Assembly: GCA_963789705.1 (NCBI GenBank)
Contig: CAWBLN010000008.1
Span: 83,474 to 147,473 of the forward strand
Source: an uncultured Thermoleophilaceae bacterium
GTDB taxonomy: Bacteria; Actinomycetota; Thermoleophilia; Solirubrobacterales; Thermoleophilaceae
Direction: 5' to 3'
Length of the DNA: 64,000 bases
Positions 18,576 to 39,219 of the stretch are shown here, piece after piece. The notes beneath the pieces were generated by a model. That model saw only the letters and a list, made by a program, of their open reading frames with translations, ran no database searches and was not told the origin of the DNA. The translations under genes were made by a program, and so were the position numbers. Numbering within the stretch: position 1 is the first letter of the stretch; each line of letters starts with the position of its first letter.

Positions 18576-18602
18576 GCGCATCATCCCAACGGGGTGAAAT
18601 GG
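18576..18602 (-). promoter_or_regulatory. recurrent upstream motif, copy a
   Basis: Gene-orientation sequence CCATTTCACCCCGTTGGGATGATGCGC, 32 nt upstream of the lipoprotein ATG at 18544. Confidence 0.6.
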
Positions 18603-18674
18603 CACGCGCTATGTGCGCCTATTCACCATGGATTGCGACACGGTCGCGGAGGGTGCTTACCTCGGATGGCCCGA

Positions 18675-19446
18675 TCAGAGGCCTGTCTTGGCCGCGACGC
18701 GGCCGGAACCCACGGCCTCTTTCAGGGCGTCATAGTCGCGCTCGTTCTGGTCGGCGTAGGCCTCGGCGAACGAGGCCAGCGCACGGTCGAAGCGGTCGCC
18801 CGCACCGAGATAGCTCCCGATCGCGATCGCGTCCCCTGAGCGGGCGTGCGCCTTCGCGAGCGCCCGGCCGCACAGCTCCGCGTAGATCGTCATCGCCTGC
18901 GGGTCCATCATCTCGACGATTGCGGAGCCCTTGCCGTCCCAGAGCTGGCGCATGTAGAAGTCCCGGCTCAGGCCGTCCAATCCCGTGGCCCGGATCCAGC
19001 CGAGCATGATGTCGCCGGCGGCCTGCGTCAGTCGCTGGCCCTCGACGACCCGCTGGCCTTGCTTGGCGAAGGCGGTCTTGCCCAAAAACGGCTCGAGCAC
19101 CGACGCCTGCGCCTCCTTGAGCTGCAGGAACAGCGGGTCGTTCTCGTCGCGGCCCAGCATGAGCACGACCCAGGCGCGCGTGCCGACGCTGCCCACGCCC
19201 ACCACCTTCCGCGCCGCGTGGACGTAGCGAAACCGCTCCAGCAGCTCCCTGCGATCCGCGGTCAGGGTACGCCGGTAGGAGCCGCCTCCCACTCGCCCTG
19301 CCCCGAGCGCGGCGCCACCGCCCTCGTCGCCTTCTCCTCGCCGCCGGCTCGCCGGGTGTGGGTGGGGTACTGGCTTCGGCCGCCTGCTTCGCTCGTGTGT
19401 CGCCACCACCTCCGAGCCATCAAGGGGGGGTCTCAACGTCCGCCAT
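18675..19446 (-). pseudogene. DUF2252 paralog remnant with an internal deletion of about 690 bp and a disrupted 5' end
   Basis: 18671-19282 aligns without gaps to 34087-34698, with about 10 substitutions counted by eye. The next roughly 690 bp of the intact copy (34699-35389) are absent. The ancestral ATG at 19446 now reads MADVETPP and then a stop. Confidence 0.8.
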
Positions 19447-19529
19447 GGTGTCGCTCCCTTCGCGGCCGGGAGAGAGCGCGAATACCTCTCCGCGTGCCGT
19501 CGCTTCCATGGAACAGCGCCGCCGCCGAC

Positions 19530-19557
19530 GCGTCATCGCCCCAACGGCATGAAATCC
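19530..19557 (-). promoter_or_regulatory. recurrent upstream motif, copy b
   Basis: Gene-orientation sequence GGATTTCATGCCGTTGGGGCGATGACGC, 84 nt upstream of the ancestral start of the DUF2252 remnant. Confidence 0.6.
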
Positions 19558-19797
19558 CGGCTGGCGCGGACTCGTGAGGGAGAGCCCGCATTTGCCTCAG
19601 CCAGTTCTGCACAATAGGGTCTGTGCGTTTGGACGCGCTGGAGCCCGCCCAAAGGGGGAAATCTTGGAACCCTCTCGGAGCATCTCCCATCGTGCCGTTT
19701 CCATCGGCCGGCCCAGGTCGATGACGTAGCCGCGCAGGCGAGACCGCGAGGCGATTATGACGCACGCGGAACCACGCGTCTCGGCGGCCAGGATGTC

Positions 19798-22083
19798 ATG
19801 GCCGGGGCGGTGAGCTCCACGGTCCGCGCGTCCCGGGCTGGCTCGCGGCAGGTCCTCAGGGCCGCGCCGGCGTTCGAGTTGTTGGAGTCGAAGCTGCGCG
19901 GGCCGCAGGGTCGCGCCGGGACGGTGCCGCGCACGGCACTGATCGGCTTGCTGGAGGAGCAGTCGGGCGCGGTCCCGATCGTTTTCGTGTCCGCCGGGGC
20001 CGGTTGGGGGAAGACGACACTGCTAGCTCAGTGGGCCTCGCGATCACAGCGGCCATTCGCGTGGGTATCAGTCGACGATAACGACAACGATCCGATCGTC
20101 TTGCTGACGTATCTCGCTGCCGCGCTCGACCGGGTCTCGCCGCTCGACCCGGGCGTGTTCGAGGCGCTGGCGTCGCCAGGCGCTTCGATCGAGGGAACGG
20201 TAGTCCCGCGCCTGGGGGTGGCTCTGGCGACGATGGACGAGGCAGTCGTCCTCGTCTTGGATGACCTGCATCTGCTGGATAGTCCGGTGAGCTTGGATGC
20301 CATCGCCGCGCTCGCGAGGCATGTGCCCGAGGGCTCGCAGCTGGCGCTCTCGTCGCGAGGGCACCCCGCATTGCGAGTCGGGGCGCTTCGCGCGCGGGGC
20401 CTCGCGCTGGAGATCGGGCCGAACGAGCTGAGCATGGACGAGGCCGAGGCGCGCCGGTTGCTCAGCGCGGCCGGCCTGGACCTGGCGGATGGCGAGGTCG
20501 CCGAGCTCACCGAGCACACGGAGGGCTGGTCTGCAGGTCTGTACCTGGCGGCGCTCTCGGCCAAGGCCGGCGGGGCCGGGATGAAGGGCGTGACCGCGTT
20601 CCGTGGGGACGACCGCTTTGTGGCCGACTATCTCGTCTCCGAGCTCCTCTCCCGCCTGCCCCGCGACGAGCTCCGATTCCTGACGAGGACCGCCGTTCTC
20701 GAGCCCATGTCGGGTCCGCTCTGCGACGCGGTCCTCGAGGAGAGTGGGTCCGCGGCGGTTCTGGAATCGCTGGCGCGTTCCAATCTGTTCCTGGTGCCGC
20801 TGGACCGGACTCGAGAGTGGTATCGCTACCACCATCTCTTCCGGGAGCTGCTGCGTTCGGAGCTCGAGCGAGTAGAGCCGGATCTCGTGCCGCGTTTGCT
20901 CGCTCGTGCGGCCGACTGGTGCGCGGCGAACGGGCAGCCGGAGACCGCGATCGGGTACGCGCAGGCGGCCGGGGACGTCAACCGAGCGGCGTGGCTGACC
21001 GTGGGTAACGGACCACGCGTCTACCAAAGCGGCCGTGTCGCAACCGCCGAACGCTGGCTCAGCTGGCTGGAGGCGCATGGGGCACTCGAGCAGAACGCGG
21101 CGGTCGCGGTGCTCGGCGCACTACTCGCCGCTGCCTGGGGCCGACCGGCGGAAGCGGAGCGTTGGGCCGATGCCGCCGAGCGTGGGAGCTACGAGGGCCC
21201 TCTGCCCGACGGCAGCGCCTCGATCGACTCGTGGCTGGCCCTGCTGCGTGCCCAGCTCTGTCGTAGAGGCGTTGCGGGGATGCGTGCGGATGCTGAGCTC
21301 GCGGTCGGGACGCTCGCTCGTGAGAGCCGGTTCTGGGCGCACGCCCTGGGGCTGCTCGCGATCTCGCGGTGGCTGGCCGGCGAGATCGACGAGGCCGACG
21401 ACCTGTTCGCCGAGGTTGTCGAGGCGGGCCTCGAGCTCGGAGGGACGGACTTGGTGATGGTGGCTCTGGGCGAGCGGGCCGCGATCGCGGTCGGAATAGG
21501 GGCGTGGGTCCAGGCGGAGGAGCACGCGAACCGAGCCCTCCGGATCATCCGCCGGCACGGGATGGAGGAGTACCCGACCAGCGCGCTCGCCTATTCCGTG
21601 GCGGCTCGCGTCGCGCTCCATCGTGGGGACGTCCCCCGCGCGCAGGAGCTGCTGGCGCGGGTGCAGCGCCTGCGGCCGCAGCTCACCTACGGGCAGCCGT
21701 ACTACTCGGTACAGACCCGCCTGGAGCTCGCCCGGGCCTACCTGACACTCGCCGACGCCGGCGGCGCCGAGACGATGCTGCGCGAGATCCAGCCGATCCT
21801 GCGCCGACAACCAGACCTCGGAGCGCTCCCCGCACAGGTGGACCGGCTGCGCGCAAACCTGAAGACGATGCGCGCGCACGCCCCCGGGGCCTCGACTCTT
21901 ACCGAGGCGGAGCTGCGCCTGCTGCCCTACCTCGCCACGCACCTCTCCTTCCGCGAGATCGGCGAGCGCCTGTACGTATCGCGCCACACGGTGAAATCAC
22001 ACGCCATCGCGGTCTACCGCAAGCTCAACGTCACCTCCCGCAACGCCGCCGTCGAACGCGCCCGCGAGCTCGGGCTGCTCTAG
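19798..22083 (+). CDS. LuxR-family transcriptional regulator, MalT/LAL type (NTPase + TPR-like + C-terminal HTH)
   Basis: 761 aa. Walker A GAGWGKTT and Walker B VLVLDDLH. C-terminal LTEAELRLLPYLATHLSFREIGERLYVSRHTVKSHAIAVYRKL. Confidence 0.9.
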   Translation: MAGAVSSTVRASRAGSRQVLRAAPAFELLESKLRGPQGRAGTVPRTALIGLLEEQSGAVPIVFVSAGAGWGKTTLLAQWASRSQRPFAWVSVDDNDNDPIVLLTYLAAALDRVSPLDPGVFEALASPGASIEGTVVPRLGVALATMDEAVVLVLDDLHLLDSPVSLDAIAALARHVPEGSQLALSSRGHPALRVGALRARGLALEIGPNELSMDEAEARRLLSAAGLDLADGEVAELTEHTEGWSAGLYLAALSAKAGGAGMKGVTAFRGDDRFVADYLVSELLSRLPRDELRFLTRTAVLEPMSGPLCDAVLEESGSAAVLESLARSNLFLVPLDRTREWYRYHHLFRELLRSELERVEPDLVPRLLARAADWCAANGQPETAIGYAQAAGDVNRAAWLTVGNGPRVYQSGRVATAERWLSWLEAHGALEQNAAVAVLGALLAAAWGRPAEAERWADAAERGSYEGPLPDGSASIDSWLALLRAQLCRRGVAGMRADAELAVGTLARESRFWAHALGLLAISRWLAGEIDEADDLFAEVVEAGLELGGTDLVMVALGERAAIAVGIGAWVQAEEHANRALRIIRRHGMEEYPTSALAYSVAARVALHRGDVPRAQELLARVQRLRPQLTYGQPYYSVQTRLELARAYLTLADAGGAETMLREIQPILRRQPDLGALPAQVDRLRANLKTMRAHAPGASTLTEAELRLLPYLATHLSFREIGERLYVSRHTVKSHAIAVYRKLNVTSRNAAVERARELGLL

Positions 22084-22103
22084 GCAGCGCCGGCGCTGCC
22101 CGG

Positions 22104-22130
22104 CTTTTCATGCCATCGGGACGATGACGC
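22104..22130 (+). promoter_or_regulatory. recurrent upstream motif, copy c
   Basis: CTTTTCATGCCATCGGGACGATGACGC, 80 nt upstream of the ATG at 22210. Confidence 0.6.
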
Positions 22131-22209
22131 GGCGGCGCCCGTGGTGTCTAGTTCGAGGTGTCCGCGGGCACGGTCCGCGGACGCCCCCGGAATGCCACCA
22201 GAGGAGGAG

Positions 22210-22566
22210 ATGGCTGACTACAAGGAGACACTACGCAGGCTCGCGCTGAACGACGAGCGGTTCGTGGAGTCGGTACTCGGCATGGGCCACGACACGGTCG
22301 AGGTCTCACGGCTGGATCAAAAGACGCACGCTCTCGTCCGGCTAGGGGCGTCGCTGGCGATCGACGCGGCGCCGAGCTCGTACCAGTCGAACGTCGAGGT
22401 GGCTCTGGCCGCCGGCGCCGGCATCGACCAGATCGTCGGGACCCTGATCGCCGTGGCTCCCACGGTCGGCCTTGCACGCGTCGTTTCCGCCGCGCCCGAG
22501 CTGGCGCTGGCGCTGGGATACGACGTCGACGCAGCGCTCGAAGAGTCCGGCGTTGACGCGGAGTGA
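22210..22566 (+). CDS. carboxymuconolactone decarboxylase / AhpD-like family protein
   Basis: ATG preceded by GGAGGAG. Starts MADYKETLRRLALNDERFVESVL and contains KTHALVRLGASLAIDAAPSSY. Confidence 0.75.
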   Translation: MADYKETLRRLALNDERFVESVLGMGHDTVEVSRLDQKTHALVRLGASLAIDAAPSSYQSNVEVALAAGAGIDQIVGTLIAVAPTVGLARVVSAAPELALALGYDVDAALEESGVDAE

Positions 22567-22733
22567 AGGCCAGGCCCGCAGTCCGCATTCCTCACCGGGT
22601 CGGGCGCCGTAGCCTGCGGCGCTTGACCGCGCACCGCAGAGCCCGAGTCACGAACGGAACCCGGGCCGAGACGGACGCCGGAATCAGCGCCAGCTCACAG
22701 GTACGTCCTGTGCGGAGGGGATGATCCGTCGGG

Positions 22734-24406
22734 ATGCCGGCCAGCGCGGATGTGTCCGGGCAGGGATCGGGGGCGCAGGCCGGCGCGACGGTGGTGCTGG
22801 TGACGCTCGCCGCGGGCCAGTTCTTGATGACGCTCGACACGTCGGTGATGAACGTCGCGATCGCGACCGTTGCCGAGGATGTGGGCACGGACGTCACCGG
22901 GATCCAGACGGCGATCACGTTGTACACGCTGGTGATGGCGACGCTGATGATCACGGGCGGCAAGGTGGGCGCCCTGATCGGCCGCAAGCGGGCGTTCGCG
23001 ATCGGCTGCGTGATCTATGGGACGGGCTCGTTCACGACCGCCATCTCGCCGTCGTTGCCGGTCCTGCTGATCGGGTGGTCGCTGCTGGAGGGCGTCGGTG
23101 CGGCGCTGATCCTGCCGGCGATCGTCGCGCTGGTTGCGGCCAACTTTCGCCCCGAGGGCCGGCCGCGCGCCTATGGCCTGGTGATGGCGGCCGGGGCGAT
23201 CGCGGTCGCGGTCGGGCCGCTGGTCGGGGGGCTGTTCACAACCTATCTCAGCTGGCGGCTGGTGTTCGTCGGCGAGGTGCTGATCGTGCTGGGGATCCTC
23301 GCGCTGACGCGGCGGATAGAGGACGAGCCCCCGGGACGGCGACCGCGTATCGACCTCGTCGGCGTCGCGCTGTCGGCGGCCGGCCTGGGCCTGGCGGTGT
23401 TCGGGGTGCTGCGCTCGAGCGTGTGGGGCTGGGTCGCGCCGAAGCCCGACGCACCGGAGCTGTTCGGCATCTCGGCGACGCTGTGGCTCATCCTCGCCGG
23501 GCTTTTCCTGATCTGGCTGTTCTTCGAGTGGGAGTCGCGGCTCGAACAGGCGCGGCGCAAGAGCCGCTCGTGCGCCCGTCGATCCTCCGGAACGTCCAGG
23601 CGAGCGGCGGCCTGAGGATGTTCTTCTTCCAGTACTTCGTACAGGCGGGCGTCTTCTTCGTGGTGCCGCTGTTCTTGTCGGTGTCGCTCGGGCTTTCGGC
23701 GATCGACACCGGGGTGCGCATACTGCCGCTCTCGATAACGCTGCTGTTGGCGGCCGCCGGGATCCCGCGCTTCCGCCCGAACGCCAATCCACGCCGCGTC
23801 GTGCGGCTCGGGCTGGTCGCCATGTTCGCGGGCACCGTCGTGCTGCTGGCTGCCATCGACGAGGACGCCTCCGCCGAGATCGTCACGCTGCCGCTGTTGC
23901 TGCTCGGCTTCGGCATCGGCGCCCTGGCCTCGCAGCTCGGCGCCGTCACCGTGTCGGCCGTGCCCGACGAGCAAAGTCCCGAGGTCGGCGGCCTGCAGAA
24001 CACCGCGACCAACCTCGGCGCGTCGCTGGGAACCGCGCTGGCCGGCTCGGTCCTGATCGCCAGCCTCACCGCGACCCTTCTGGCCGGCATAGAGCAGAAC
24101 CCGGCCGTCCCGCCCGAGGTCAGCAAGCAGGCCGATACGCAGCTCTCAAGCGGCGTCCCCTTCCTGTCCGACGACGACCTCGAGTCCGCGCTCGAGCAGG
24201 CCGGCGTGACCGGCCAGACGGCCTCCGCGATCGTGGACGAGAACGCCACCGCGCGGCTCGCCGCGCTGCGAGCCGCGCTCGCCATCATCGCGATCGTCGC
24301 CGCCGCGGCGCTGTTCTTCTCCCGCACCATCCCCACCCGACAGCCCGGATCGCAGCCAGCCGACACCGAGCGCGGACCACCGCACCCCGACGCCGCCCCC
24401 GCGTAG
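22734..24406 (+). pseudogene. MFS transporter, DHA2 (EmrB/QacA-like, 14-TMS) family; one frameshift
   Basis: N-terminal piece 22734-23615: LAAGQFLMTLDTSVMNVAI...GGKVGALIGRKRAF. The C-terminal piece continues in another frame to 24406: EPLVRPSILRN...LQNTATNLGASLG. The frames switch at about 23548-23560 (GGCGCGGCGC). Confidence 0.8.
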
Positions 24407-24480
24407 GAGGTGACCGGATGGTCAAACCCCATCCTGCTGTTGGCGCGACACACGTGCTGGCGTCGTTGACCTCGAGCATG

Positions 24481-24508
24481 CGATTTCATGCCATCGGGGG
24501 GATGACCG
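24481..24508 (+). promoter_or_regulatory. recurrent upstream motif, copy d
   Basis: CGATTTCATGCCATCGGGGGGATGACCG, 121 nt upstream of the ATG at 24629. Confidence 0.6.
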
Positions 24509-24628
24509 CTGGTTGTGGTCGTTGCAGGATTGTCGCCAGGCGTTCCGGCGCCGCGGCGGAAACTGAAACCGCCGGCGTTGGCTAAATCGGCGGGCGGTCG
24601 TGGCCCGGCCGCTGGGAAGGAGAGCTCC

Positions 24629-25018: not shown

Positions 25019-25100
25019 CGGGGCCCGCGCAGCGCGGAGGAGGCCATGGACAGGCGCGAGTAGTCGGCGGCACGCGCGAGCCGGCCCATCGCGACGTCGA
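25013..25100 (-). pseudogene. fragment of a PAP2 phosphatase gene (internally deleted copy of 35681-36289)
   Basis: 25013-25029 matches 35697-35713, and 25030-25100 matches 36091-36161 with 2 mismatches seen by eye. This implies a 377-bp internal deletion and loss of both gene ends. Confidence 0.7.
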
Positions 25101-26871: not shown

Positions 26872-26898
26872 GAAATCATCCCGATGGGGGGATGTGCC
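26872..26898 (+). promoter_or_regulatory. recurrent upstream motif, copy i
   Basis: GAAATCATCCCGATGGGGGGATGTGCC, 66 nt upstream of the ATG at 26964. Confidence 0.5.
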
Positions 26899-26963
26899 AC
26901 CGGGGTCGCCACCGCAAGATTCCGGTTGCCGGCCCACCCCCGACCTCGACCGAAAGGCACGCA

Positions 26964-27184
26964 TGAGCACCGCGGTACGACCTCGTCAACGGACCGCCGC
27001 GAACGACACAGGCGGACCTCGGTCCGCCGACGCGTTCGTCGTCTTGAGAGGTTTCGATCGCTTCGCCGCGAAGTCGTCGTCCTTGCCCGGCGACTTCGGC
27101 GACGAGGGCACCTGCGCGCACGAGGGATCGTGGGGCCCCGCGGCGGAACACGGCGCCTGGCACGGGCCGCGGGGGGCGTTATGA
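26964..27184 (+). CDS. possible 73-aa leader ORF translationally coupled to the GH15 gene
   Basis: ATG at 26964 and GC-rich third codon positions. Its TGA (27182-27184) overlaps the GH15 ATG (27181-27183) as ATGA. No recognisable family. Confidence 0.35.
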
Positions 27185-29127
27185 GCACGGCCAAGACCAG
27201 GAGCCCGGTGAAGCCAACCCGCAAGGCAAAGACCGACGGCAAGCTGGCGGGCGTGCCTGCGCATGAGAGCGCCGCTGCGCCGTCGCCGTTCCCGCCGATC
27301 GGGAACTACGCGTTCCTATCCAACTGCCACACCGGCGCGCTTGTCGCCCCCGACGGGGCGGTCGACTGGCTCTGCGTGCCGCGCTTCGACTCACCCAGCG
27401 TGTTCGGCACCCTGCTCGATCGCCAGGCGGGGTCCTTCCGCCTGGCTCCGTTTGGGGTCAACGTCCCGACGGCTCGGATCTATGAGCCTGGTACCAACAC
27501 CCTCGTCACGACCTGGAACGCGCCCACCGGCTGGGTGCTGGTGCGCGACGCGCTCACTATCGGCCCGCGCCAGCGCGAGGATGAAATCACCCCGCACACC
27601 CGGCCGCCGGCCGACGACGACGGCGACCACATACTCGTACGTACGGTCCTCTGCCTCAATGGAAGCGTCGAAGTCGAGTTGGTGTGCGAGCCGGTCTTCG
27701 ACTACGGGCGCACGCCGGCGGAGTGGTCGCTGGTCGACGGGAGTCGCCACACGGCCGACGCAACGGGCGCCGACCAGACGATCCGGCTCCAGACCAACAT
27801 GGCGGTCGGCGTCGAGGGCGAACGGATCAGGGCCCGGCACACCCTCGAGCAGGGCGACCAGGTCTTCTGCGCGCTCTCCTGGGCCGAAGACCTCGCCTCG
27901 CCCCAGAGCATCGACGAGGCCAACGAGAGGCTCGCCGCGACCACGCGCTACTGGCGGTCCTGGCTGGACCGGTCACGCCCGGTCGACCACCGCTGGCGCG
28001 AGCCGATCGAGCGTTCTGCGCTGGCGATCAAGGGCCTGACCTACATGCCCACTGGCGCGACGGTCGCCGCGCTCACCACCTCCCTGCCGGAGACGCCGGG
28101 CGGCGAGCGCAACTGGGACTACCGCTTCACCTGGATGCGCGACTCGACCTTCACGCTCCAGGCGCTGCATTACCTCAACCTGGACTGGGAGGCCGATGAG
28201 TTCATGCAGTTCGTCGCCGACTTGGAGGCCAACGAGGATGGGGCGCTGCAGATCATGTACGGGATCGACGGCCGGCGCGACCTCACCGAGTCCACGCGGG
28301 AAGAACTCTCCGGCTACGCGGGAGCCCATCCGGTGCGAATCGGCAACGGCGCCTTCGACCAGCGCCAAAATGACGTCTTCGGCGCCGTGCTGGACTCGAT
28401 CCTGCTCCACACGCGGCGCAGCCAGCGGCTGCCGAGGCGGTTGTGGCCGATTGTGCAGGCGCAGGCCGAGTGCGCCACCCGTGTCTGGAAGAGCCCGGAC
28501 CAGGGGATCTGGGAGGCCCGTGGCGAGCCGCAGCACTACGTGTCCTCGAAGTTGATGTGCTGGGTCGCGCTGGACAGGGCGGCGAAGCTGGCCGGCATCC
28601 GCGGCGACCGGGAGGCGGAGGCCACCTGGCGCGCCACCGCAGACGAGATCAAGGCGGACATCCTCGAGCACGGCGCCCGCGACGGTGTGCTGCGCCAGCA
28701 CTACGACACCGACGCGCTCGACGCATCCACGTTGCTGGCGGCGCTCTTCGGCTTCCTACCGGGTGACGACGAGAGGCTGCGCAAGTCGGTCGAGGCGATC
28801 GCCGACGACCTGACCGAGGACGGCTTCGTCCTGCGCTATCGCACCGACGAGACCGACGACGGTCTATCGGGTAAGGAGGGGAGCTTCCTGATCTGCTCGT
28901 TCTGGCTCGTGTCGGCGCTGGCGATCGTCGGCGAGCTGCAGCGCGCCCGTGACCTCATGGAGCGCCTGCTCAGCGTCGCCTCGCCGCTCGGCCTGTACGC
29001 CGAGGAGTTCGACACAAGCACCGGCCGGCACCTCGGCAACTTTCCTCAGGCCTTCTCCCATCTCGCGCTCATCCAGGCTGCCGGACGAATCATCCTCGCC
29101 GAGCGGCTTCCGGAATACACGTCGTGA
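27181..29127 (+). CDS. glycoside hydrolase family 15 (glucoamylase/trehalase-like)
   Basis: IGNYAFLSNCHTGALVAPDGAVDWLCVPRFDSPSVF, ERNWDYRFTWMRDSTF, and QRQNDVFG...EGSFLICSFWLV...GNFPQAFSHLALI. Confidence 0.9.
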   Translation: MSTAKTRSPVKPTRKAKTDGKLAGVPAHESAAAPSPFPPIGNYAFLSNCHTGALVAPDGAVDWLCVPRFDSPSVFGTLLDRQAGSFRLAPFGVNVPTARIYEPGTNTLVTTWNAPTGWVLVRDALTIGPRQREDEITPHTRPPADDDGDHILVRTVLCLNGSVEVELVCEPVFDYGRTPAEWSLVDGSRHTADATGADQTIRLQTNMAVGVEGERIRARHTLEQGDQVFCALSWAEDLASPQSIDEANERLAATTRYWRSWLDRSRPVDHRWREPIERSALAIKGLTYMPTGATVAALTTSLPETPGGERNWDYRFTWMRDSTFTLQALHYLNLDWEADEFMQFVADLEANEDGALQIMYGIDGRRDLTESTREELSGYAGAHPVRIGNGAFDQRQNDVFGAVLDSILLHTRRSQRLPRRLWPIVQAQAECATRVWKSPDQGIWEARGEPQHYVSSKLMCWVALDRAAKLAGIRGDREAEATWRATADEIKADILEHGARDGVLRQHYDTDALDASTLLAALFGFLPGDDERLRKSVEAIADDLTEDGFVLRYRTDETDDGLSGKEGSFLICSFWLVSALAIVGELQRARDLMERLLSVASPLGLYAEEFDTSTGRHLGNFPQAFSHLALIQAAGRIILAERLPEYTS

Positions 29128-29199: not shown

Positions 29200-30561
29200 T
29201 CAGAGGGCGGGGGCCGGAGGCGCCGTGCCGGCGGCGTACTCCTGCATCGAGACCTTGCCGGCGGCCCACGCCGCCATCACAGGGTCGATAATGCGCCAGG
29301 CCTCCTCGGCCTCGTCGCCGCGGATGAAAAGCATCGGATTGCCCTGGAGCATCTCCTCGATCAGGTGGGCGTAGGCCGTGAATCGCGGCGGTGTCGACCG
29401 GGCCTCGAGCTGGTGGTTCTCGGCGGTTTGCTCGGGCCCGTTGAGCGTCGTGGCGACGCGCACGTACGGTTCTATGAGCCCGATCCTGAGCACGTTGGGC
29501 TCGACTCCGGGAAAGCGGTCGGTCAGGTACTGGGGGAGCGGACGGAAATGGATGGCGATCTCGGCGGAGTCCGTCTCGAGGGCCTTGCCGGAGCGGAGCG
29601 TGAACGGGACGCCGTCCCACCGCGAGCTGTTCAGGCCGAGGGTCAGGGAGGCGTAAGTCTCGGTCTCGCGGCTGGGGTCCACTCCGGGTTCGTCCACGTA
29701 GGCGGGCACCTGCCGTGAGCCGATCGTGCCGACGGTGTACCGGGCGCGGATCGTGTCGCTGCGCATTCGCTCCGCCAAGGGCGTGGCCACCGTCCGCAGC
29801 GCCTCGACGCGCACATCCCGGAAGGAGGCGGCGTCGGCTCTGGCTGGCTGCTCCATGAGGAGCAGCGCCATGGCCTCCATAAGGTGGTTCTGCACCATGT
29901 CCTTGAGGGCGCCGGCGCCGTCGTAGTAGGAGGCCCGGCCCTCGAGGGTGAGGCTCTCGAGCCAGCTGATGTCGACGCGATCGACGTGCACCGCGTTGAG
30001 AATCGGCTCGAAGACGCGGTTGAGGAATCGCAGGACGATGACGCGGCGGACGAGCTCGCTGGAGAGGAAGTGGTCGATACGGAAGATCGTGGGCGCCGGC
30101 AGCTGGATGCGGAGGAGCTCGTTGAGGTGGTGTGCCGAGGCCAGGTCGGTGCCGAAGGGCTTCTCGATCGCCACTGCGTCCACGGAGTCCAGCGTCGTCG
30201 CAGCGAGCGCCGGTAGGACCTTTGGCAGGAGGCTCGGTGGCAGCGCGAGGTAGACCAGCGTGTCCGGATGGTCGTCGCCGATCACGCGGCTGACGTCCTC
30301 CGGCCGGGTGACGTCGGCGGACTGGAAGCTCAGCATGCTCACGACGCGATCGCGTGTGGCCGGCGTCACGTCCGCGTGCTCCCGCAGTTTGCCGGCGATG
30401 TGCTCGCGGAAGTCGTCGGTCGACCAGTCGGTGATGTCGGACCCGACCAGCGTCAATCCCGCTGGCAGCAGCTTGTCCTCGGCCAACTGGGCGACCGCCG
30501 GCAGCAGCAGGCGGCTGGTCAGATCACCGGAAGCTCCGAACAAGACCATGCGCTCGATCAT
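29200..30561 (-). CDS. zwf: glucose-6-phosphate dehydrogenase
   Basis: MVLFGASGDLTSRLLLPA, EKPFGTDL and RIDHFLSSELVRRVIVLRFLNRVFEPILN. The ATG at 30561 overlaps the upstream gene's stop as ATGA. Confidence 0.9.
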   Translation of the reverse strand: MIERMVLFGASGDLTSRLLLPAVAQLAEDKLLPAGLTLVGSDITDWSTDDFREHIAGKLREHADVTPATRDRVVSMLSFQSADVTRPEDVSRVIGDDHPDTLVYLALPPSLLPKVLPALAATTLDSVDAVAIEKPFGTDLASAHHLNELLRIQLPAPTIFRIDHFLSSELVRRVIVLRFLNRVFEPILNAVHVDRVDISWLESLTLEGRASYYDGAGALKDMVQNHLMEAMALLLMEQPARADAASFRDVRVEALRTVATPLAERMRSDTIRARYTVGTIGSRQVPAYVDEPGVDPSRETETYASLTLGLNSSRWDGVPFTLRSGKALETDSAEIAIHFRPLPQYLTDRFPGVEPNVLRIGLIEPYVRVATTLNGPEQTAENHQLEARSTPPRFTAYAHLIEEMLQGNPMLFIRGDEAEEAWRIIDPVMAAWAAGKVSMQEYAAGTAPPAPAL

Positions 30562-31461
30562 GGTGTGTCGCCTTTCTCGTCTCGTCGTGGGAGGTCTGTG
30601 TAGCGCGACGAGGGCTGGCCCGTCACCCCGGGGCGGCAACGGAAGATCGCGCCCGCCAGCGGCTCGTCGGCGCGCCGCTCGGAGTCGACCCATGACGTCG
30701 TGATGTAGAGGTCACCGCCGTCGCCGCCGCCGAAGACCACCGAGGTGGGATTCGACGTCGGCAGCTCGACGACGCTGTCGAGCGTGCCGTCGGCGCGGTA
30801 GCGGTGGACCGCCCCGGCTCGTCCAACTGCGACCCACAGCATGCCTTCACCGTCGACGGTCATGCCGTCCGGCCAGAGCTGCTCCCGGCTGAGATCGAGG
30901 AACCGCCGACGACCGCTGAGGACCCCGGTGGGGCGGTCAAGGTCGAAGACGTCGACGACGCAGTCGGCCGTGTCGGCTAGGTAGAGCAGCCCCCGCGGCT
31001 CATCGAACGCGGGCCCGTTGGAGATCGTCAGGCCGCCGACCACACGGGTCACCCGGTCGCCGTCGACGCGGTACAACGCCGCGTTCCGGCGCCGCTTGTC
31101 GAAGGCCATCGTGCCGACCCAGACCCTTCCATGGCTGTCGGCCTTGGCGTCGTTGGCGCGGTTCTCGGGCCTGTCCTGCTCGATCGGAACGCGCAGATCC
31201 AGCGTGCCTGTGGTCCGGTCGAGCACCGCCAGGCCCTCCGGGCTTGCCACCACCGGCTCGCCCGTCGCGCCGAGCACCACGCCACCCGGCTGCCCGCTGG
31301 TGCTCCAGGAGCTGTGCTCAGAGGACTCCGGATACCAGCAATGCACCCGCTCTGCGGGGATATCCACCCACCACAGGCGGGCCGTCGCGGCATCCCACAG
31401 CGGGCCCTCCGCGTGCTGCGCCCGCACGCTCAGCGCGACCTCGACAGGGGTATCGCCCATG
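30558..31461 (-). CDS. SMP-30/gluconolactonase/LRE family protein
   Basis: AEGPLWDAATARLWWVDI..., NDAKADSHGRVWVGTM, SNGPAFDE..LYLADT and PDGMTVDGEGMLWVA. The conserved start is the ATG at 31461. An in-frame ATG at 31643 would add 60 low-complexity residues. Confidence 0.85.
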
Positions 31462-31721: not shown

Positions 31722-31747
31722 CGCCTCATCCCGATGGCATGATTTCG
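31722..31747 (-). promoter_or_regulatory. recurrent upstream motif, copy e (short-spacer variant)
   Basis: Gene-orientation sequence CGAAATCATGCCATCGGGATGAGGCG. It faces the SMP-30/zwf operon, 261 nt from the ATG at 31461 and 79 nt from the ATG at 31643. Confidence 0.5.
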
Positions 31748-31956
31748 AGCCTTCCGGGGGCGGCAATCCGCCGCCACGACGTGGCCGAGGTCCATCCTGC
31801 GTCGTCGAGCTCTCCAGGTCAAGGAGCATGGCGCCGCCTCGATGTCGTGGTCCACGGGCGCTCGGCGACCGCCTCGCTCCAGCGCGACCAAACTTGCCAG
31901 ACTCCCGGAAGATCGGAGCACACAACGACCGCAGAGCGGCTTCGCGGCACCACGAA

Positions 31957-33417: not shown

Positions 33418-33499
33418 GGCACTTTCGGTCCCCGCGAGATCCGCGAGCGCGAACGGTCACCTGCTCCCGGGCGACCCGTCTACCGCACGATGTGGCTAG

Positions 33500-33895
33500 C
33501 TACGCCAGCGCTCTCTGCTTGATCTGCTCGAACTCGGTCTGACTGATCGCGCCGCTGTCGAGCAGTTGCTTCGCGCGTGCGATCTCGCTGCCGGGCCCGC
33601 CGTTGCCGGCCGCGTGGCGGACGTGGGCGTCGAACTCCGCCTTCTTAGCCTGGGCCTGTTGAACGTCGCGTTGGTCCATCTCCCTGCCCTCGGCGATCAG
33701 GTAGACCAAGACGCCGAGCAACGGCACGACAATCACGAACACGGACCAGAAGAACTTCGCCCAGCCGCCGATGTCGTCCCTGCGAAAGACGTCCGCGAAG
33801 ACCCTGATCAGGAGCCAGAACCAGACCACGAAGCCGAAGAACACGAGCATCGTGCCGAGAATGTCGAGGAATGGGTAGTCAGCCGCAATCACCAT
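33500..33895 (-). CDS. PLD-nuclease-N-terminal-type membrane domain plus SHOCT domain protein
   Basis: ATG at 33895. Contains FVVWFWLLIRVFADVFRRDDIGGWAKFFWSVFVIVVPLLGVLVYL, and a C-terminal AKQLLDSGAISQTEFEQIKQRAL (SHOCT). Confidence 0.8.
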   Translation of the reverse strand: MVIAADYPFLDILGTMLVFFGFVVWFWLLIRVFADVFRRDDIGGWAKFFWSVFVIVVPLLGVLVYLIAEGREMDQRDVQQAQAKKAEFDAHVRHAAGNGGPGSEIARAKQLLDSGAISQTEFEQIKQRALA

Positions 33896-33948
33896 GGAGT
33901 CCCTTTCTGTCGAACGCCACGGCGATTGTCCCCCTGCCCCCGGGCCGC

Positions 33949-33975
33949 GCGCATCCCCCAGATCGGGGGATCTCT
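33949..33975 (-). promoter_or_regulatory. recurrent upstream motif, copy j (degenerate left arm)
   Basis: Gene-orientation sequence AGAGATCCCCCGATCTGGGGGATGCGC, 54 nt upstream of the ATG at 33895. Internal spacing is the same as in the main class. Confidence 0.45.
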
Positions 33976-34090
33976 GCACCTCAGACTCTTGTCGAGGCTC
34001 CGATGATGGAGGCTTGACGTGAGCGCAGTGACCGGCATCTGGTGTGCCTCGCGGGCCGCCGAGCGCGGGTTCGCTGTGGCTCGCGGCCGA

Positions 34091-35488
34091 TCAGAGGCCT
34101 GTCTTGGCCGCGAGGCGGCCGGAACCCACGGCCTCTTTCAGGGCGTCATAGTCGCGCTCGTTCTGGTCGGCGTAGGCCTCGGCGAACGAGGCCAGCGCAC
34201 GGTCGAAGCGGTCGCCCGCACCGAGATAGCTTCCGATCGCGATCGCGTCCCCTGAGCGGGCGTGCGCCTTCGCGAGCGCCCGGCCGCACAGCTCCGCGTA
34301 GATCGTCATCGCCTGCGGGTCCATCATCTCGACGATTGCGGAGCCCTTGCCGTCCCAGAGCTGGCGCATGTAGAAATCGCGGCTCAGGCCGTCCAAGCCC
34401 GTGGCCCGGATCCAGCCGAGCATGATGTCGCCGGCGGCCTGCGTCAGTCGCTGGCCCTCGACGACCCGCTGGCCTTGCTTGGCGAAAGCGGTCTTGCCCA
34501 AGAACGGCTCGAGCACCGACGCCTGCGCCTCCTTGAGCTGCAGGAACAGCGGGTCGTTCTCGTCGCGGCCGAGCATGAGCACGACCCAGGCGCGCGTGCC
34601 GACGCTGCCCACGCCCACCACCTTCCGCGCCGCGTGGACGTACCGAAACCGCTCCAGCAGCTCCCTGCGGTCCGCGGTCAGGGTACGCCGGTAGGAGCGG
34701 AGGACTCCCCGCACGAACTCCTCGATCTCATCCTGCTCGACGCCGGACGCCAGCTCCTCGATCGGCATGATGAGCGGCGGGTCGCTCGCGATCCTGGGCT
34801 CGCCGTCGACGAGCTCGGTGAGCTTCGCGAATGCCCTCAGGCTGTCCTTCGATCGCGCCTTCGCCACGTTGCGCTCGAACCGCTTCCGCTGCTTCGCGGT
34901 CCCCTGCCGAGCCGCCAGCGCGGCGATCTCGTCCACGTCGATGCGGGAGTACCAGATGTCAAGGTTGGACATCTGGCCGAACCCCCTGATCGCCTCCCGG
35001 TACGACCGCGTCACCGCCCGATTGATCGAACGCCGCCGTTTCGCGTCAAAGCCTCGATCCCGGCCGGCCACGGCGAAGCTGGCCGCCAGCCGCTTCACGT
35101 CCCACTCGAATGGGCCTGGCAACGTCTCGTCGAAGTCATTGATGCTGAACACCAGCCGCCGGTCGGGCGCGGCGAAACCACCGAAGTTGGACAGATGCGC
35201 ATCGCCACAGAGCTGCACCTGTAGCCCGGTCCGAGGAGCGCCGGCCAGATCGGCCGCCATCGGGTACGCCGCCCCACGGAAAAACGTGAACGGCGACACC
35301 AGCATCCGCCCATAGCGGATCGGCACCAGCTCGGGCACACGCGAAACCGCCTGCTCCTCCAGCAACTCGACCGGATCACGCCGATCAGAGGCCGGCTCCC
35401 ACTCGCCCTGGCCCGAGCGCGGCGCCACCGCCCTGGCCGCCTTGCCCCTTTCCGCCCGCTCCCGAGGCGTCAGGTGCGGTTCCGCCAT
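34091..35488 (-). CDS. DUF2252 domain protein (intact copy)
   Basis: 465-aa ORF. ATG preceded by GAAGGGAG. Contains RVPELVPIRYGRMLVSPFTFFRGAAYPMAADL...LCGDAHLSNFG...FSINDFDET. Confidence 0.9.
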   Translation of the reverse strand: MAEPHLTPRERAERGKAARAVAPRSGQGEWEPASDRRDPVELLEEQAVSRVPELVPIRYGRMLVSPFTFFRGAAYPMAADLAGAPRTGLQVQLCGDAHLSNFGGFAAPDRRLVFSINDFDETLPGPFEWDVKRLAASFAVAGRDRGFDAKRRRSINRAVTRSYREAIRGFGQMSNLDIWYSRIDVDEIAALAARQGTAKQRKRFERNVAKARSKDSLRAFAKLTELVDGEPRIASDPPLIMPIEELASGVEQDEIEEFVRGVLRSYRRTLTADRRELLERFRYVHAARKVVGVGSVGTRAWVVLMLGRDENDPLFLQLKEAQASVLEPFLGKTAFAKQGQRVVEGQRLTQAAGDIMLGWIRATGLDGLSRDFYMRQLWDGKGSAIVEMMDPQAMTIYAELCGRALAKAHARSGDAIAIGSYLGAGDRFDRALASFAEAYADQNERDYDALKEAVGSGRLAAKTGL

Positions 35489-35555
35489 GATGTCGCTCCC
35501 TTCGCGGTCGGCCTAGCGTTTGCCGTCGGTTCCCATCGAACTGCGCCTGAGCCGA

Positions 35556-35584
35556 TGCGTCATCACCCAGATGGAATGAAATCT
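35556..35584 (-). promoter_or_regulatory. recurrent upstream motif, copy f1
   Basis: Gene-orientation sequence AGATTTCATTCCATCTGGGTGATGACGCA, 68 nt upstream of the DUF2252 ATG at 35488. Confidence 0.6.
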
Positions 35585-35590
35585 CGCTGC

Positions 35591-35617
35591 CGATTTCATC
35601 CGATCCGGGCGATGACC
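35591..35617 (+). promoter_or_regulatory. recurrent upstream motif, copy f2 (orphan: no ORF start downstream)
   Basis: CGATTTCATCCGATCCGGGCGATGACC, 6 nt from f1 in inverted orientation. It points into the 3' end of the convergent PAP2 gene. Confidence 0.5.
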
Positions 35618-35680
35618 ACTTGTAAATGGCGGTTCAGGATCGGCGCCATGTGTGTCCTGATACGGCTACCGCTACGACGG

Positions 35681-36289
35681 CTACCGGTTGCGGTGCACGT
35701 GACGGGGCCCGCGGCGGGCGAGTGCGTGTGTGGTGAGCTGCGCCAGTGCGGTGCCGATCAGTGCGCCGGCCAGCACGTCCCCGGGGTAGTGGACACCGGT
35801 GTGGACGCGCGAGTACGCCACCAGTGCGGCGAGCGCGTGCAGCGGGGCAGCGGCCGCCGGCGACGCGTGGCCGACTCCGGTCGCGAACGCGAAGGCGCTG
35901 GCGGAGTGCCCGGAGGGAAACGAGCGCGAGCTCGGCATCCGCACATGGCGGGCGAGCGGGACATCGCGCGCGAGACGGTCGGGGCGACGCCGCCGCGCGA
36001 GCGGCTTGACGGCGACGTTGACCACGGTCGAGGTGACACCGAGCGACGCGAGCCCCTGGGCGGCCGCGCGGCGGCCGGTCCTCCCCCCGGCGAGCGCGAG
36101 CAGCGCGGAGGAGGCCATGGACAGGCGCGAGTAGTCGGCGGCACGCGAGAGCCGGCTCATCGCGACGTCGAGCGCCGGGGTCGGCGTGCGGGCGATGGCG
36201 GCGTAGATCGCGAGATCCAGGCGCTCGGCGTCCTCGATCCAGCGCGGCCGGCGCGGCCGGGCGTTCGTGGGTTCGGCGTCAGGGTTCAA
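35681..36289 (-). CDS. PAP2-family phosphatase (membrane)
   Basis: KPLARRRRP, PSGHSASAF and SRVHTGVHYPGDV, which are the three PAP2 signature blocks. TTG start at 36289. Confidence 0.8.
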   Translation of the reverse strand: MNPDAEPTNARPRRPRWIEDAERLDLAIYAAIARTPTPALDVAMSRLSRAADYSRLSMASSALLALAGGRTGRRAAAQGLASLGVTSTVVNVAVKPLARRRRPDRLARDVPLARHVRMPSSRSFPSGHSASAFAFATGVGHASPAAAAPLHALAALVAYSRVHTGVHYPGDVLAGALIGTALAQLTTHALARRGPRHVHRNR

Positions 36290-36303
36290 GGAGGCCGGAT
36301 CCT

Positions 36304-37607
36304 ATGAGGCGGCTGGCGGCGATCGTCGCGCTGGTGGTGGGGGCCGCGACGGTCACCCTCGCCGTCGCTGTGGCGGTGAGCGAGTTCCCGCGCGGGTTGG
36401 TCCTGCTCGGCTGTGTGGTGGTCGCCGGCGTGTCGGCCTGGTACGGCGTGCTGCGCCGCGGGGTTGCGCGCGTCGCGGGGCTGACCGTCGCGGGGCTGGC
36501 GCTCGCCGGTGCCGTGGTGCTGGTCGTGACGCAGGGGGAGCCGCTCGCCGACCTGCTGGTCGTGGCCGGGCTGCTGGTGTCTCTGGCTGCCGCGCGCGCC
36601 ACCCTCGGTGTCCATGTGGATCGTGCCGGGCGCTTCGGCGCCGCGCCACCCGGTGCTGTTCTTCAACCCGAAGTCCGGCGGCGGCAAGGCCGAGCGCTTC
36701 GCGGTCGCGGACGAGGCGCGCGCGCGCGGGATCGAGCCGATCGAGCTCAGCCCGCCGTGGGATCTCGAGGGGCTCGTTCGCGAGGCGGTCGCCGGCGGAG
36801 CCGACGGGCTCGCGATGGCCGGCGGCGACGGCTCCCAAGCCGTCGTCGCGGCGATCGCCGCCGAGCTCCACTTGCCGTACGCGTGCGTGCCCGCCGGCAC
36901 GCGCAACCACTTCGCGCTCGATCTCGGCGTCGACCGCGAGGACGTCGTCGGCGCCCTCGACGCGTTCGTCGAGGGCGGCGAGCGAACCGTCGACCTGGCC
37001 GAGGTCAACGGGCGCGTGTTCGTCAACAACGTCTCGCTCGGACTCTACGCGGAGGCCGTCCAGCGAGAGGGCTATCGCGACGCGAAGCTGCGCACGCTGC
37101 TGGACACCGTGCCGGACGTGGTCGGTCCCAGTGGCCGCGGGCTCGACCTGCGCTGGACCGGCCCGGGCGGACATGGGCACGACTCGGGTGCGGCGGTGCT
37201 CGTCTCCAACAACCGCTACCGGCTCGGCCGCGCTGTCGGCTCGGGCACGCGGCCGAGGATCGACGACGGCCTGCTCGGAATCACGGTCTTCGGCGCGGCC
37301 TCGGGACGCGGCGAGGGCGGCCGGTTCTTGCAGCGGCCGTGGCGCGAGTGGTCCGCGCCCGTCGTTCGAGGTCGACGCCGACGGCCCCGTCCCCGCCGGA
37401 ATCGACGGCGAGGCGCTCGTGCTCGATGCGCCGCTGCGGTTTCGCATCCGGCCCGGAGTCCTGCGCGTGCGCATCGCCCGCAAGCACCCGGGCGCCTCGC
37501 CCTCGGCCATGGCGCCCGAAGGCGTCTGGGCCGGCGTGGTCGAGCTGGCGCGAATCGCCGCCGGCCGCCCCCAGAAACCCGCAACGTCAACCCCAAGGAG
37601 GCCCTAA
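36304..37607 (+). pseudogene. diacylglycerol/lipid kinase family protein with an N-terminal TM region; disrupted reading frame
   Basis: ATG at 36304 after AAGGAGG, followed by a TM-rich 100 aa. The kinase core is in a second frame (VLFFNPKSGGGKA...GGDGSQAVVA...PAGTRNHFALDLG). The C-terminus is in a third frame (SFEVDADGPVPAGIDGEALVL...RIRPGVLRVRI). There is a firm shift at C-run 37358-37360 and a possible one within 36600-36655. Confidence 0.75.
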
Positions 37608-37825
37608 TGGACCTGTTGGAGATCACCGAGAAGGAACGGCTGAGCCGCGAGGACGCCGCCGCCCGCCTGCACGCCCTAGCCGACGCGCTCGCCAAACACA
37701 ACGACGTCGAATTCGACCGCGGCGGCATGCACTTCAAGGTGCACGTGCCCGACGAGGTGGACTTCAAGCTCGAGATCGAGATCGAGGACGACGAGAGGGA
37801 GCTCGAGATCGAGCTCAAATGGTGA
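37607..37825 (+). CDS. amphi-Trp domain protein
   Basis: 72 aa: MDLLEITEKERLSREDAAARLHALADAL...FKVHVPDEVDFKLEIEIEDDERELEIELKW. AAGGAGG lies upstream, and the ATG overlaps the kinase TAA as TAATG. Confidence 0.7.
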   Translation: MDLLEITEKERLSREDAAARLHALADALAKHNDVEFDRGGMHFKVHVPDEVDFKLEIEIEDDERELEIELKW

Positions 37826-39102
37826 GCCGACCCGGGCCCTCTGCGCGGGCACGTGTCACATCGGTTGCTGCGCTCTCCATCGGTGGGGCCTTGTCGCGCG
37901 GGTGCTGCTCGTACCAGCGGGCGTAGCGATCGGCGAGCGGGGCCGCGCTGAGGCCATGGGCGAAGACCGAGAGCCCCACGGTCAGGTAGATCGCGAGCAC
38001 GATCAGGTGCTCGTGGGGAAGGTTTGACTCCTCGACGACGATCACCGCGAACACGATCGAGGCCAGACCGCGGGGGCCGAACCAGCCGAGGAAGCCGAGC
38101 GTCGGCGCCCTGGCGTGCGAGCCCAACATCGCGATCGCGACCGGCAGCATCCGCACGACCGTGAGGCTGAGCACCGCGTAAAGAACGAGTTCCCAGCTCA
38201 GCTCACCGAGCGCGGGGCCGAGCAGGATGGCCCCGAAGAGAACGAAGGTCACGCCGTTGAGCACGTTCCCCACCTGTTCGCTGAGCTCGTTGATTTGCTC
38301 GGGGTCGCGCCCGAGCGCCAGCCGAAAGGCCAGGCCCGCGACGAAGGCGGCGATGAAGCCCGACCCGCCGAGCGCGCTGGCGATCCCGTAGGCAAGCACC
38401 GCACCGGCGCCCGGGATCACCTGCCGCCACGGGCCCGCGATCAGCTCTCGCCGGCCCGCGTGGATGACGATCGCCGCGACCAGGAGCCCGCCCACCACAC
38501 CGCCGAAAACCCCGTAGCCGATCTCCTCGAAAAGCAGCGTCGCGGCGCCACGGCCCTCGGCGATCTCCGATTCCACGTCGGCCACGGCGACGGCCGCGAA
38601 CAGCAGCGGGCACGCAGATCCCGTCGTTGAGCCCGCTCTCGACGTTGAGCCCCTGGCGGATCCTCCCCGGAACGCGCGGCTCGGTGACCACCGCCTGCCC
38701 CAGCGCGGCGTCCGTCGGCGCCAACACGATCGACAGGATCACAGCCTCGTCGACGCTCAGCCGCCCGAGGATGGCAGTCGCCGCAACGGCCCCCAACGCG
38801 ATCGTCAACGGCAGCCCGATCCCCAGCAGCCGCAGCGGCACCCCCACCTCGCGGCGAAGCAGCCGAAGATCGATACGCGACGCGTCGCAGAACAGCACCA
38901 GCGCCAACGTCGCCTCCGCCAGCGATCGCACAGTCCCGCTCGAGCTCTCGAGGTCGATCTCGCCAAGCACCTCGGGTCCGACCAGCAACCCGACCGCGAC
39001 GAACACCATGGCCGGCGTGACGAGCGTCCCCGACAGCCGCCGCGAAATCGCCGCGACGCCGAGCAGCGTGAGTGCCACGATGGCAAGGGACCACTCCATC
39101 AC
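37815..39102 (-). pseudogene. cation:proton (Na+/H+) antiporter, CPA1 family; one frameshift
   Basis: N-terminal piece: MMEWSLAIVALTLLGVAA...VLAPTDAALG...VESGLNDGICVP. It continues in another frame as LLFAAVAVADVESEIAEG...GWFGPRGLASIVFA. The shift is at G-run 38608-38610. Confidence 0.85.
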
Positions 39103-39144
39103 CGTTGCTCCATGGGATCACCGTGCCCAATCGCCCATGCTCAG

Positions 39145-39170
39145 ACCTCATCCATCCTGGGTGATTTCCG
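39145..39170 (-). promoter_or_regulatory. recurrent upstream motif, copy h (short-spacer variant)
   Basis: Gene-orientation sequence CGGAAATCACCCAGGATGGATGAGGT, 43 nt upstream of the antiporter ATG at 39102. Confidence 0.5.
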
Positions 39171-39192
39171 CAGACCTGGACGCGATTTCGGT

Positions 39193-39219
39193 GGTTTCAT
39201 CCCATCCGGGTGATGCGAC
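39193..39219 (+). promoter_or_regulatory. recurrent upstream motif, copy g
   Basis: GGTTTCATCCCATCCGGGTGATGCGAC, 58 nt upstream of the ATG at 39277. Confidence 0.6.

Follow-up and report, generated by a model that had tools for sequence, protein, structure and literature searches.

Clustered inverted repeats in a Thermoleophilaceae genome as probable sites of a MalT-like regulator, with a published counterpart in Actinoplanes

The closest described counterpart of the element considered here is the MalT regulon of Actinoplanes sp. SE50/110, in which 17 mapped transcription starts are preceded by a palindrome, 5'-TCATCC-5nt-GGATGA-3', that overlaps their -35 region and whose 3' end falls 34.4 +/- 1.0 nt short of the start (Droste et al. 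2020, PMC7567727). These promoters belong to a 51-gene "maltose-regulated large genomic region" that is also found in other Micromonosporaceae; deletion of malT (ACSP50_3915) lowers the expression of 42 of the 51 genes, its overexpression raises that of 39, and the known signal is maltose together with growth phase (PMC7567727). The region encodes SHOCT, AI-2E, diacylglycerol kinase, MFS and glucosidase proteins, three DUF1269 proteins and two MalT-like regulators, and a DUF2252 gene is present in A. missouriensis (PMC7567727). The subject of the present analysis is a stretch of 64,000 nucleotides from an uncultured Thermoleophilaceae bacterium (assembly GCA_963789705.1, contig CAWBLN010000008.1, positions 83,474 to 147,473), hereafter the window, which carries eleven copies of a short orientation-locked motif between 18.5 and 39.2 kb. 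The first-pass annotation of this DNA had proposed that the motif was an undescribed signal of a stress regulon. The novelty of the signal does not hold, as the same palindrome, position and gene families have already been published for Actinoplanes (PMC7567727); the cluster is a new example of the published type of regulon, here in the Thermoleophilia.

The two systems can be likened through the published site, geometry and gene families. Both have the palindrome, here with the degenerate arms TCAYSC and GGRYGA, and in both it overlaps the -35 region, the distance to the mapped start in Actinoplanes comparing with about 35 nt to the start predicted here from the phasing of the -10 box. In both, many sites lie in one large cluster that also encodes a MalT-like regulator, the families SHOCT, DUF1269, DUF2252, AI-2E, diacylglycerol kinase, MFS and glycosidases recur (Tables S3/S4 of the Actinoplanes study), and the gene order is shuffled among relatives while the sites are kept. 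The differences are that the present cluster belongs to another class of Actinomycetota (Thermoleophilia, with some Acidimicrobiia), that its distal arm is often TTTCAY instead of CATCAY, and that it has AhpD-like, DUF7144, GH15, SMP-30 plus zwf and Na+/H+ exchanger genes but lacks the arginine deiminase operon. A more distant comparison is provided by the MalT box of E. coli and Klebsiella, 5'-GGGGA(T/G)GAGG-3', whose core GGA(T/G)GA is matched by the core hexamer found here (GGATGA or GGGTGA); the boxes GGATGAGG and CTCATCCCC are recognizable in the sequence of the malP promoter of E. coli. In that system too, the promoter-proximal box abuts or overlaps the -35 region and the regulator is a STAND-type ATPase with a LuxR-type helix-turn-helix. 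Nevertheless, the enterobacterial boxes are asymmetric and arranged as direct or mixed repeats, whereas the present site consists of one inverted repeat interrupted by a 5-nt spacer, and the window targets (DUF-type membrane proteins, AhpD-like, GH15, SMP-30/zwf and antiporter genes) are not those of maltodextrin transport and catabolism.

All eleven copies that had been reported were recovered at their positions, each in non-coding DNA according to gene calls based on third-position G+C and Pfam, and the divergent pairs f1/f2 and h/g are also present (site letters as in Table 1). The pattern TCAYSCNNNNNGGRNGATG, with at most one mismatch, has 12 matches in the window (site h on both strands), against 0.88 +/- 0.91 expected from 100 dinucleotide shuffles, none of which reached 12; the G+C content of the window is 70%. 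A weight-matrix scan found no site in the window outside 18.5-39.2 kb, which amounts to 11 sites in 20.7 kb and 0 in the remaining 43 kb. Copies a, b, c, d, f1, f2 and g are strong and have in common a block of fixed length, gaTTTCAYSCCRTYNGGGNGATGMS, and the core TCAYSC-N5-GGRYGA with its fixed 5-nt spacer can be attributed to all eleven sites. Once this core is applied, copies i and e rate as good, and copy h is a canonical TCACCC-N5-GGATGA without the TG flank. Copy j is a degenerate and weaker instance, yet it is conserved in the related locus L002 (11448-11473, upstream of the SHOCT orthologue; related loci are designated by L numbers).

Some details of the earlier description need revision. 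The distance from TTT to GATGA, which had been given as 14 nt in nine copies and 11 nt in e and h, is an artefact of register. The half-site that stays invariant is GGRYGA; the GATGA of e and h coincides with it, whereas that of most copies joins the half-site's GA to the TGA(C) belonging to the -35 box. The short distances to start codons also need partial correction, since several starts (GTG 22141 for c, GTG 24515 for d and ATG 18559 for a) lie upstream of the predicted transcription starts; ATG 22210, ATG 24629 and ATG 18544, respectively, are likelier. The corrected SMP-30 start, 31460, lies about 230 nt past the predicted transcription start of site e, an arrangement matched in the L002 orthologue, and the GH15 gene starts near 27238 or possibly at 27130.

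The site was compared across 160 related loci, 80 of them chosen on the basis of DUF2252 and 80 retrieved from metagenomes with no query other than the regulator protein. A regular expression of the originally described motif allowing 2 substitutions returned noise in the relatives, whereas the upstream regions of orthologues together with an iterated weight matrix worked. The matrix, built over the window and 80 related loci (1.52 Mb), gave 142 sites with the two-fold symmetric consensus (C)ATCAYCC-N5-GGRYGAT(G) (core WTCAYCC-N5-GGRYGAW), and 86 of the 142 score on both strands. The imperfect palindrome seen in the window thus resolves into a two-fold symmetric site across relatives. The left end is variable upstream of the DUF2252 orthologues (TCTCAT, ATTCAT, ATCACC, GTCACC). 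The intergenic location noted in the window extends to the relatives, 126 of the 142 sites being non-coding in a crude gene call, against 44% of random positions (p = 1e-28).

Such a palindrome could in principle act as nucleic acid structure: a hairpin of RNA (or single-stranded DNA) in the 5' leader, serving as a stability or riboregulatory element, would be congruent with the ability of TCAYCC to pair with GGRTGA (T-G being a wobble in RNA) and with the presence of every copy on the sense side of its gene. However, the variable arm pair Y8:R18 shows 34 C-G, 35 C-A, 74 T-G and 51 T-A combinations and no covariation (Fisher p = 0.23); C is combined with A in 35 of 203 unique sites, the association running slightly against Watson-Crick pairing, and it is specific bases that are conserved, not pairing alone. 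Moreover, none of the sites matches an Rfam family at the gathering score of that family, the scan of the window returning only a signal recognition particle (SRP) RNA and a tRNA elsewhere. Because the consensus is two-fold symmetric and its arms vary independently, the motif is a DNA site for a symmetric protein dimer rather than an RNA hairpin. Within the spacer, the outermost positions (11 and 15) are associated in a palindromic manner over all loci (57 C..G and 30 G..C versus 30 C..C and 15 G..G, Fisher p = 0.0008), which may reflect paralogous regulators preferring different bases or a shared ancestry of the sites.

The sites also have a fixed relationship to a second element. Among 112 gene-oriented sites, matrix positions 44-49, that is 23-28 nt past the A of GGRYGA, read T(0.47) W(0.69) n n A(0.39) T(0.71), and the T at position 49 is present in 71% against a background of 15% (p = 1e-39). 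In the window, nine of the eleven sites have T at exactly this position and the other two are one base off (p = 1.6e-6). This element looks like a -10 box of the actinobacterial housekeeping type (TAnnAT) held in fixed phase 22 nt downstream of the motif. If T49 is set at -7, transcription would start about 35 nt past the A of GGRYGA, the centre of the site would lie near -43, and the putative -35 hexamer would be the weak A21-T22-G23-M-C-S (ATGACS; ATGMCS). As a check on circularity, sites were re-selected by the symmetric core only and oriented solely by the side on which a gene is found; the TG flank has frequencies of 0.61 and 0.71 and the -10 T of 0.57 on the gene side, versus 0.37, 0.42 and 0.30 on the far side. 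Since the proximal arm runs into the weak -35 box (ATGAC), the orientation lock would be explained by the fusion of the two. At site e, no -10 box could be read at the expected phase on the plus strand towards the oxidoreductase gene at 31828. A -10 box downstream of the motif would leave the motif outside the transcript, and the mapped starts of Actinoplanes are likewise downstream of it (PMC7567727); the hairpin is therefore a very improbable explanation.

The same geometry bears on the possibility that the motif serves on its own as a promoter for an alternative sigma factor of the general-stress type, with TTTCAT as its -35 and GATGAC as its -10 element. The orientation lock and the short distance of the copies from start codons would be expected of such promoters, and the SigB/SigF regulons of other Actinobacteria have a gene content similar to the window targets. 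The general-stress promoters recognized by SigB/SigF in Actinobacteria and Firmicutes, GTTT-N14-16-GGGTAT, are likewise orientation-specific and located upstream of similar poorly characterized stress-type genes. Yet the motif does not fit this consensus, its TTT and GGG being 9 nt apart, and its blocks, only 11 nt apart, are too close for the -35 and -10 contacts of the sigma-70 family. In many copies that look functional, CAT, GAT or AAT stands in place of TTT; in addition, the two-fold symmetry and the separate -10 box at fixed phase are foreign to a sigma promoter. Spacing, symmetry and the separate -10 box dismiss SigB/SigF-like and ECF-like promoters alike, and a sigma promoter is accordingly very unlikely. 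To our knowledge, none of the binding sites of DosR, CRP, BldD, the NarL heptamers or the lux box fits the motif either.

In relatives, orthologous genes are preceded by the site as well. The DUF2252 protein of the window, for which an exact-protein look-up returned no record, is 84-88% identical to proteins of uncultured Thermoleophilaceae/Solirubrobacteraceae (L001-L004), with weaker matches from across the Solirubrobacterales and from further orders. Of 79 DUF2252 loci, 26 carry a site ahead of the gene; among them are the seven closest relatives without exception, Solirubrobacter soli (DSM 22325, locus L011), Baekduia, Conexibacteraceae, Gaiellales, Miltoncostaeaceae and a Microthrix genome (Acidimicrobiia). 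No site is present at the Streptomyces locus, and at that of Nocardioides there is only a weak one, just downstream of the gene. As with the "islands" described for Actinoplanes, the sites are clumped, some loci having as many as 8 in 21 kb and many others lacking them. The families downstream of them are DUF2252 (the prominence of which reflects the choice of loci), DUF7144, sulfatase, AhpD/CMD-like, DUF6325, ClC channel, SHOCT, Na+/H+ exchanger, AI-2E transporter, pyridoxal phosphate (PLP)-dependent decarboxylase, SulP, aquaporin, GH15 and SMP-30; six of the downstream genes encode large LuxR-family regulators with an AAA ATPase and a MalT-type TPR region. In several relatives (L067, e.g. 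6324-7649; L072, e.g. 12956-14347; L074, L015, L075 and L076) this site stands in front of the genes of a ClC chloride channel, a PLP enzyme resembling glutamate decarboxylase, a Na+/H+ exchanger and an aquaporin, a set reminiscent of acid or osmotic resistance systems. The presence of many similar short palindromes in the non-coding DNA of a limited region might suggest a dispersed repeat (a repetitive extragenic palindrome, or an element resembling miniature inverted-repeat transposable elements) devoid of regulatory role. Nonetheless, only about 21 nt are common to the copies, their flanks are unrelated, they keep a fixed phase to the -10 box and to gene starts, and they are retained ahead of orthologues (60-88% protein identity) in several orders, which makes a dispersed repeat barely credible. 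The earlier view that the motif is a genuine orientation-locked cis-regulatory signal common to a co-localized set of genes is supported; the label of general stress is plausible from the gene content (ion channels, antiporter, decarboxylase, AhpD-like protein, trehalase-like GH15 and zwf).

The best candidate for the cognate protein is encoded inside the cluster, between sites b and c (19798-22083), and is the only DNA-binding protein found among the Pfam-screened open reading frames (ORFs) of the cluster. It matches the NCBIfam MalT model NF003420 (E = 3.4e-89) and shares 32% identity with E. coli MalT in the N-terminal 372 aa (2e-45) and 34% in the helix-turn-helix, with a length of 761 aa versus 901 aa in E. 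coli. It has metagenomic homologues with 91-92% identity, which together with the DUF2252 identities place the source among the soil members of the class Thermoleophilia. Homologues of the regulator carry the name "maltose regulon positive regulatory protein", and the best 120 matches are all relatives with at least 68% identity. Its linkage to the site was evaluated in the 80 metagenome loci (677 kb) fetched by the regulator protein, an independent set. These contain 77 sites, with 127 strand hits versus 0-4 in simulated sequence. A site lies at most 150 nt past the stop codon of the regulator in 19 of 69 loci (p = 5e-18), as site c does in the window, and at most 500 nt upstream of it in 9 of 70, while a CMD-like gene is present in the same locus in 24 of 80, mostly close to the regulator. 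Because of the post-stop sites and the recurrence of the CMD-like gene, the regulator, the site and the AhpD-like gene form a conserved module. Regulators of this class also adjoin sites in L002, L067, L072, L073 and L074.

Several observations weigh against assigning the motif to this protein as an activator. The regulator scores 300 bits against NF003420, for which the equivalog cut-off is 537, so that it is MalT-like and not a MalT equivalog. Only 37 of the 80 regulator-centred loci have at least one site at the threshold used, many of their contigs being short and their homologues sharing only about 50% identity. Site b does not face the regulator gene, so that autoregulation is not evident. 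All the promoter positions are deduced from the phasing of the -10 box, and a site overlapping the -35 box could also be compatible with repression. The palindrome might thus be the operator of a repressor acting by occlusion, or the site of another GerE-family protein such as a NarL-type response regulator: in L010 and L022 a response regulator with the same kind of helix-turn-helix is encoded beside the site and divergently from it, and the helix-turn-helix alone does not discriminate among members of the LuxR family. Nevertheless, the -35 hexamers are weak (ATGMCS), as expected of activator-dependent promoters, the Actinoplanes genetics show activation by a MalT-like regulator at the same motif (PMC7567727), the independent linkage to MalT-like regulator genes is strong, and no response regulator is encoded among the Pfam-screened ORFs of the cluster. 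A repressor or another GerE-family protein consequently seems unlikely, if less so than the sigma promoter or the hairpin.

The motif is, then, probably the site of a MalT-like LAL (large ATP-binding LuxR-family) regulator, the protein encoded at 19798-22083 being the best candidate. The anatomy and symmetry of the site, its phase to the -10 box, its conservation and its physical proximity to regulator genes are direct observations; that this very protein binds it, and activates rather than represses, we infer, as we do the starts and the inducing signal. Of the mechanisms that had been left open (a protein-binding operator, an unusual sigma promoter or a 5' hairpin), the activator-type protein site at the -35 region is thereby retained and the other two are not. 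A dimer of C-terminal GerE-type helix-turn-helix domains would recognize (C)ATCAYCC-N5-GGRYGAT(G), the gene-proximal arm of which would cover -40 to -35 and meet the weak hexamer, with the TAnnAT box 17 nt further on. By analogy with the MalT proteins of E. coli and Actinoplanes, the regulator would be switched on by ATP and a small-molecule signal, and in its active form would bind and recruit RNA polymerase to otherwise poor promoters. The outcome would be the co-activation of about ten transcription units within 21 kb: the protein without Pfam match plus DUF1269, the DUF2252 remnant, the AhpD-like gene, the two DUF7144 genes, GH15, SMP-30 plus zwf, SHOCT, the intact DUF2252 gene and the Na+/H+ exchanger.

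Table 1. Sites, predicted -10 boxes and associated genes in the window (window coordinates; -10 boxes and starts are predictions)
Feature	Position	Strand	Core	Predicted -10 box	Target or remarks
Site a	18581-18597	-	TCACCC-cgttg-GGATGA	TGGAGT 18558-18553	Predicted start near 18546; 157-162 aa protein without Pfam match, 18071-18544/18559, then DUF1269 17492-18001
Site b	19536-19552	-	TCATGC-cgttg-GGGCGA(TGAC)	TTCCAT 19513-19508	Internally deleted DUF2252 remnant 18675-19427 (-); site in divergent gap before regulator gene
MalT-like LAL regulator gene	19798-22083	+			AAA_16 ATPase, MalT-type TPR region, GerE/LuxR helix-turn-helix (Pfam)
Site c	22108-22124	+		TCTAGT 22147-22152	25 nt past regulator stop codon; AhpD/CMD-like gene, likely start ATG 22210, end 22566
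Site d	24486-24502	+		CAGGAT 24525-24530	DUF7144 four-transmembrane protein, likely start ATG 24629, end 25018
Site i	26876-26892	+	TCATCC-cgatg-GGGGGA	CAAGAT 26915-26920	GH15/trehalase-like gene ~27238-29127
Site e	31726-31742	-	TCATGC-catcg-GGATGA	TACGCT (perfect) 31703-31698	SMP-30/gluconolactonase 30558-31460 and zwf 29200-30693, leader ~230 nt
Site j	33954-33970	-	TCCCCC-gatct-GGGGGA (degenerate)	GACAAT, 1-nt shift	SHOCT-domain gene 33500-33895
Site f1	35563-35579	-		TTCGAT 35540-35535	Intact DUF2252 gene 34091-35488
Site f2	35596-35612	+		CAGGAT 35635-35640	Divergent partner of f1
Site h	39148-39164	-	TCACCC-aggat-GGATGA	CACGGT 39125-39120	Na+/H+ exchanger, start 39099
Site g	39197-39213	+		GAGAAT 39235-39240, 1-base shift	Second DUF7144 gene 39277-39666
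SRP RNA gene	8605-8873	-			Long (Bacillus-type); Rfam RF01854, 177 bits; outside motif cluster
tRNA gene	12847-12918	+			Outside motif cluster

Some of the individual sites deserve comment. At site a, ATG 18544 coincides with the predicted transcription start and suggests a leaderless mRNA. The DUF2252 remnant beside the regulator lacks the residues corresponding to about 60-290 of its orthologues and has a full-length paralogue in the target of site f1; its own site and -10 box are intact. Site f2 faces the 3' end of a PAP2 gene (35681-36289, minus strand) and is without an ordinary target gene in the window. Here too an ATG, 35648, stands at the predicted start, which suggests a leaderless mRNA. 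The roughly 20 codons that follow it are similar to a leaderless ORF of 29 codons located behind the equivalent site of L001 (9540-9760, minus strand; MVLLRPHRPRRPPVAGNVMRP...), a site that goes on to drive a 72-aa Amphi-Trp gene. Site f2 could also give rise to an antisense RNA to the convergent PAP2 gene. A role for f2 as a phased upstream helper of f1 is unlikely, as the distance between the two sites of such pairs is not constant (33 bp in the window, 41 bp in L004, 48 bp in L010 and 76 bp in L001), and is further disfavoured by the well-placed -10 box of f2 itself.

The L001 orthologue of the target of site h carries a site scoring 26.4. In the window, this Na+/H+ exchanger (37845-39099, minus strand) aligns with its L001 orthologue in two reading frames, with an overlap near 38608-38684, a frameshift indicative of either a pseudogene or an assembly error. 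The neighbouring diacylglycerol-kinase ORF (36608-37825, plus strand) ends, without a change of frame, in a 72-aa Amphi-Trp module (37607-37825), the L001 counterpart of which is a separate gene (94% identity); the form found in the window may be a fusion or the result of a missed stop or start codon.

These results turn an anonymous repeat into a regulon hypothesis for the little-studied, mostly uncultured Thermoleophilia of soils, with predicted promoters and starts and a named candidate regulator. They also provide a common regulatory handle on the DUF2252, DUF1269, DUF7144, DUF6325 and SHOCT families. The divergence of the distal arm (TTTCAY) in this lineage may reflect an asymmetric use of the dimer. 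The main interest lies in how far the published system extends across the Actinomycetota: the large region of Actinoplanes, which had been described for a single family, is paralleled in distant Actinomycetota, the site geometry being the same and the gene content partly shared, and the regulon can therefore be argued to concern something more general than maltose. It is possible, though we put this forward tentatively and at somewhat less than even odds, that the site, the MalT-like regulator and a core of unexplained genes (DUF2252, DUF1269, DUF7144, SHOCT, AhpD-like, AI-2E, diacylglycerol kinase and ion or solute channels) constitute an ancient regulon spanning at least three classes, namely Actinomycetes (Micromonosporaceae), Thermoleophilia and Acidimicrobiia, the role of which would lie in the response to stress (of stationary-phase, osmotic or acid type) or in dormancy, triggered by a sugar or energy signal, rather than in the catabolism of maltose.

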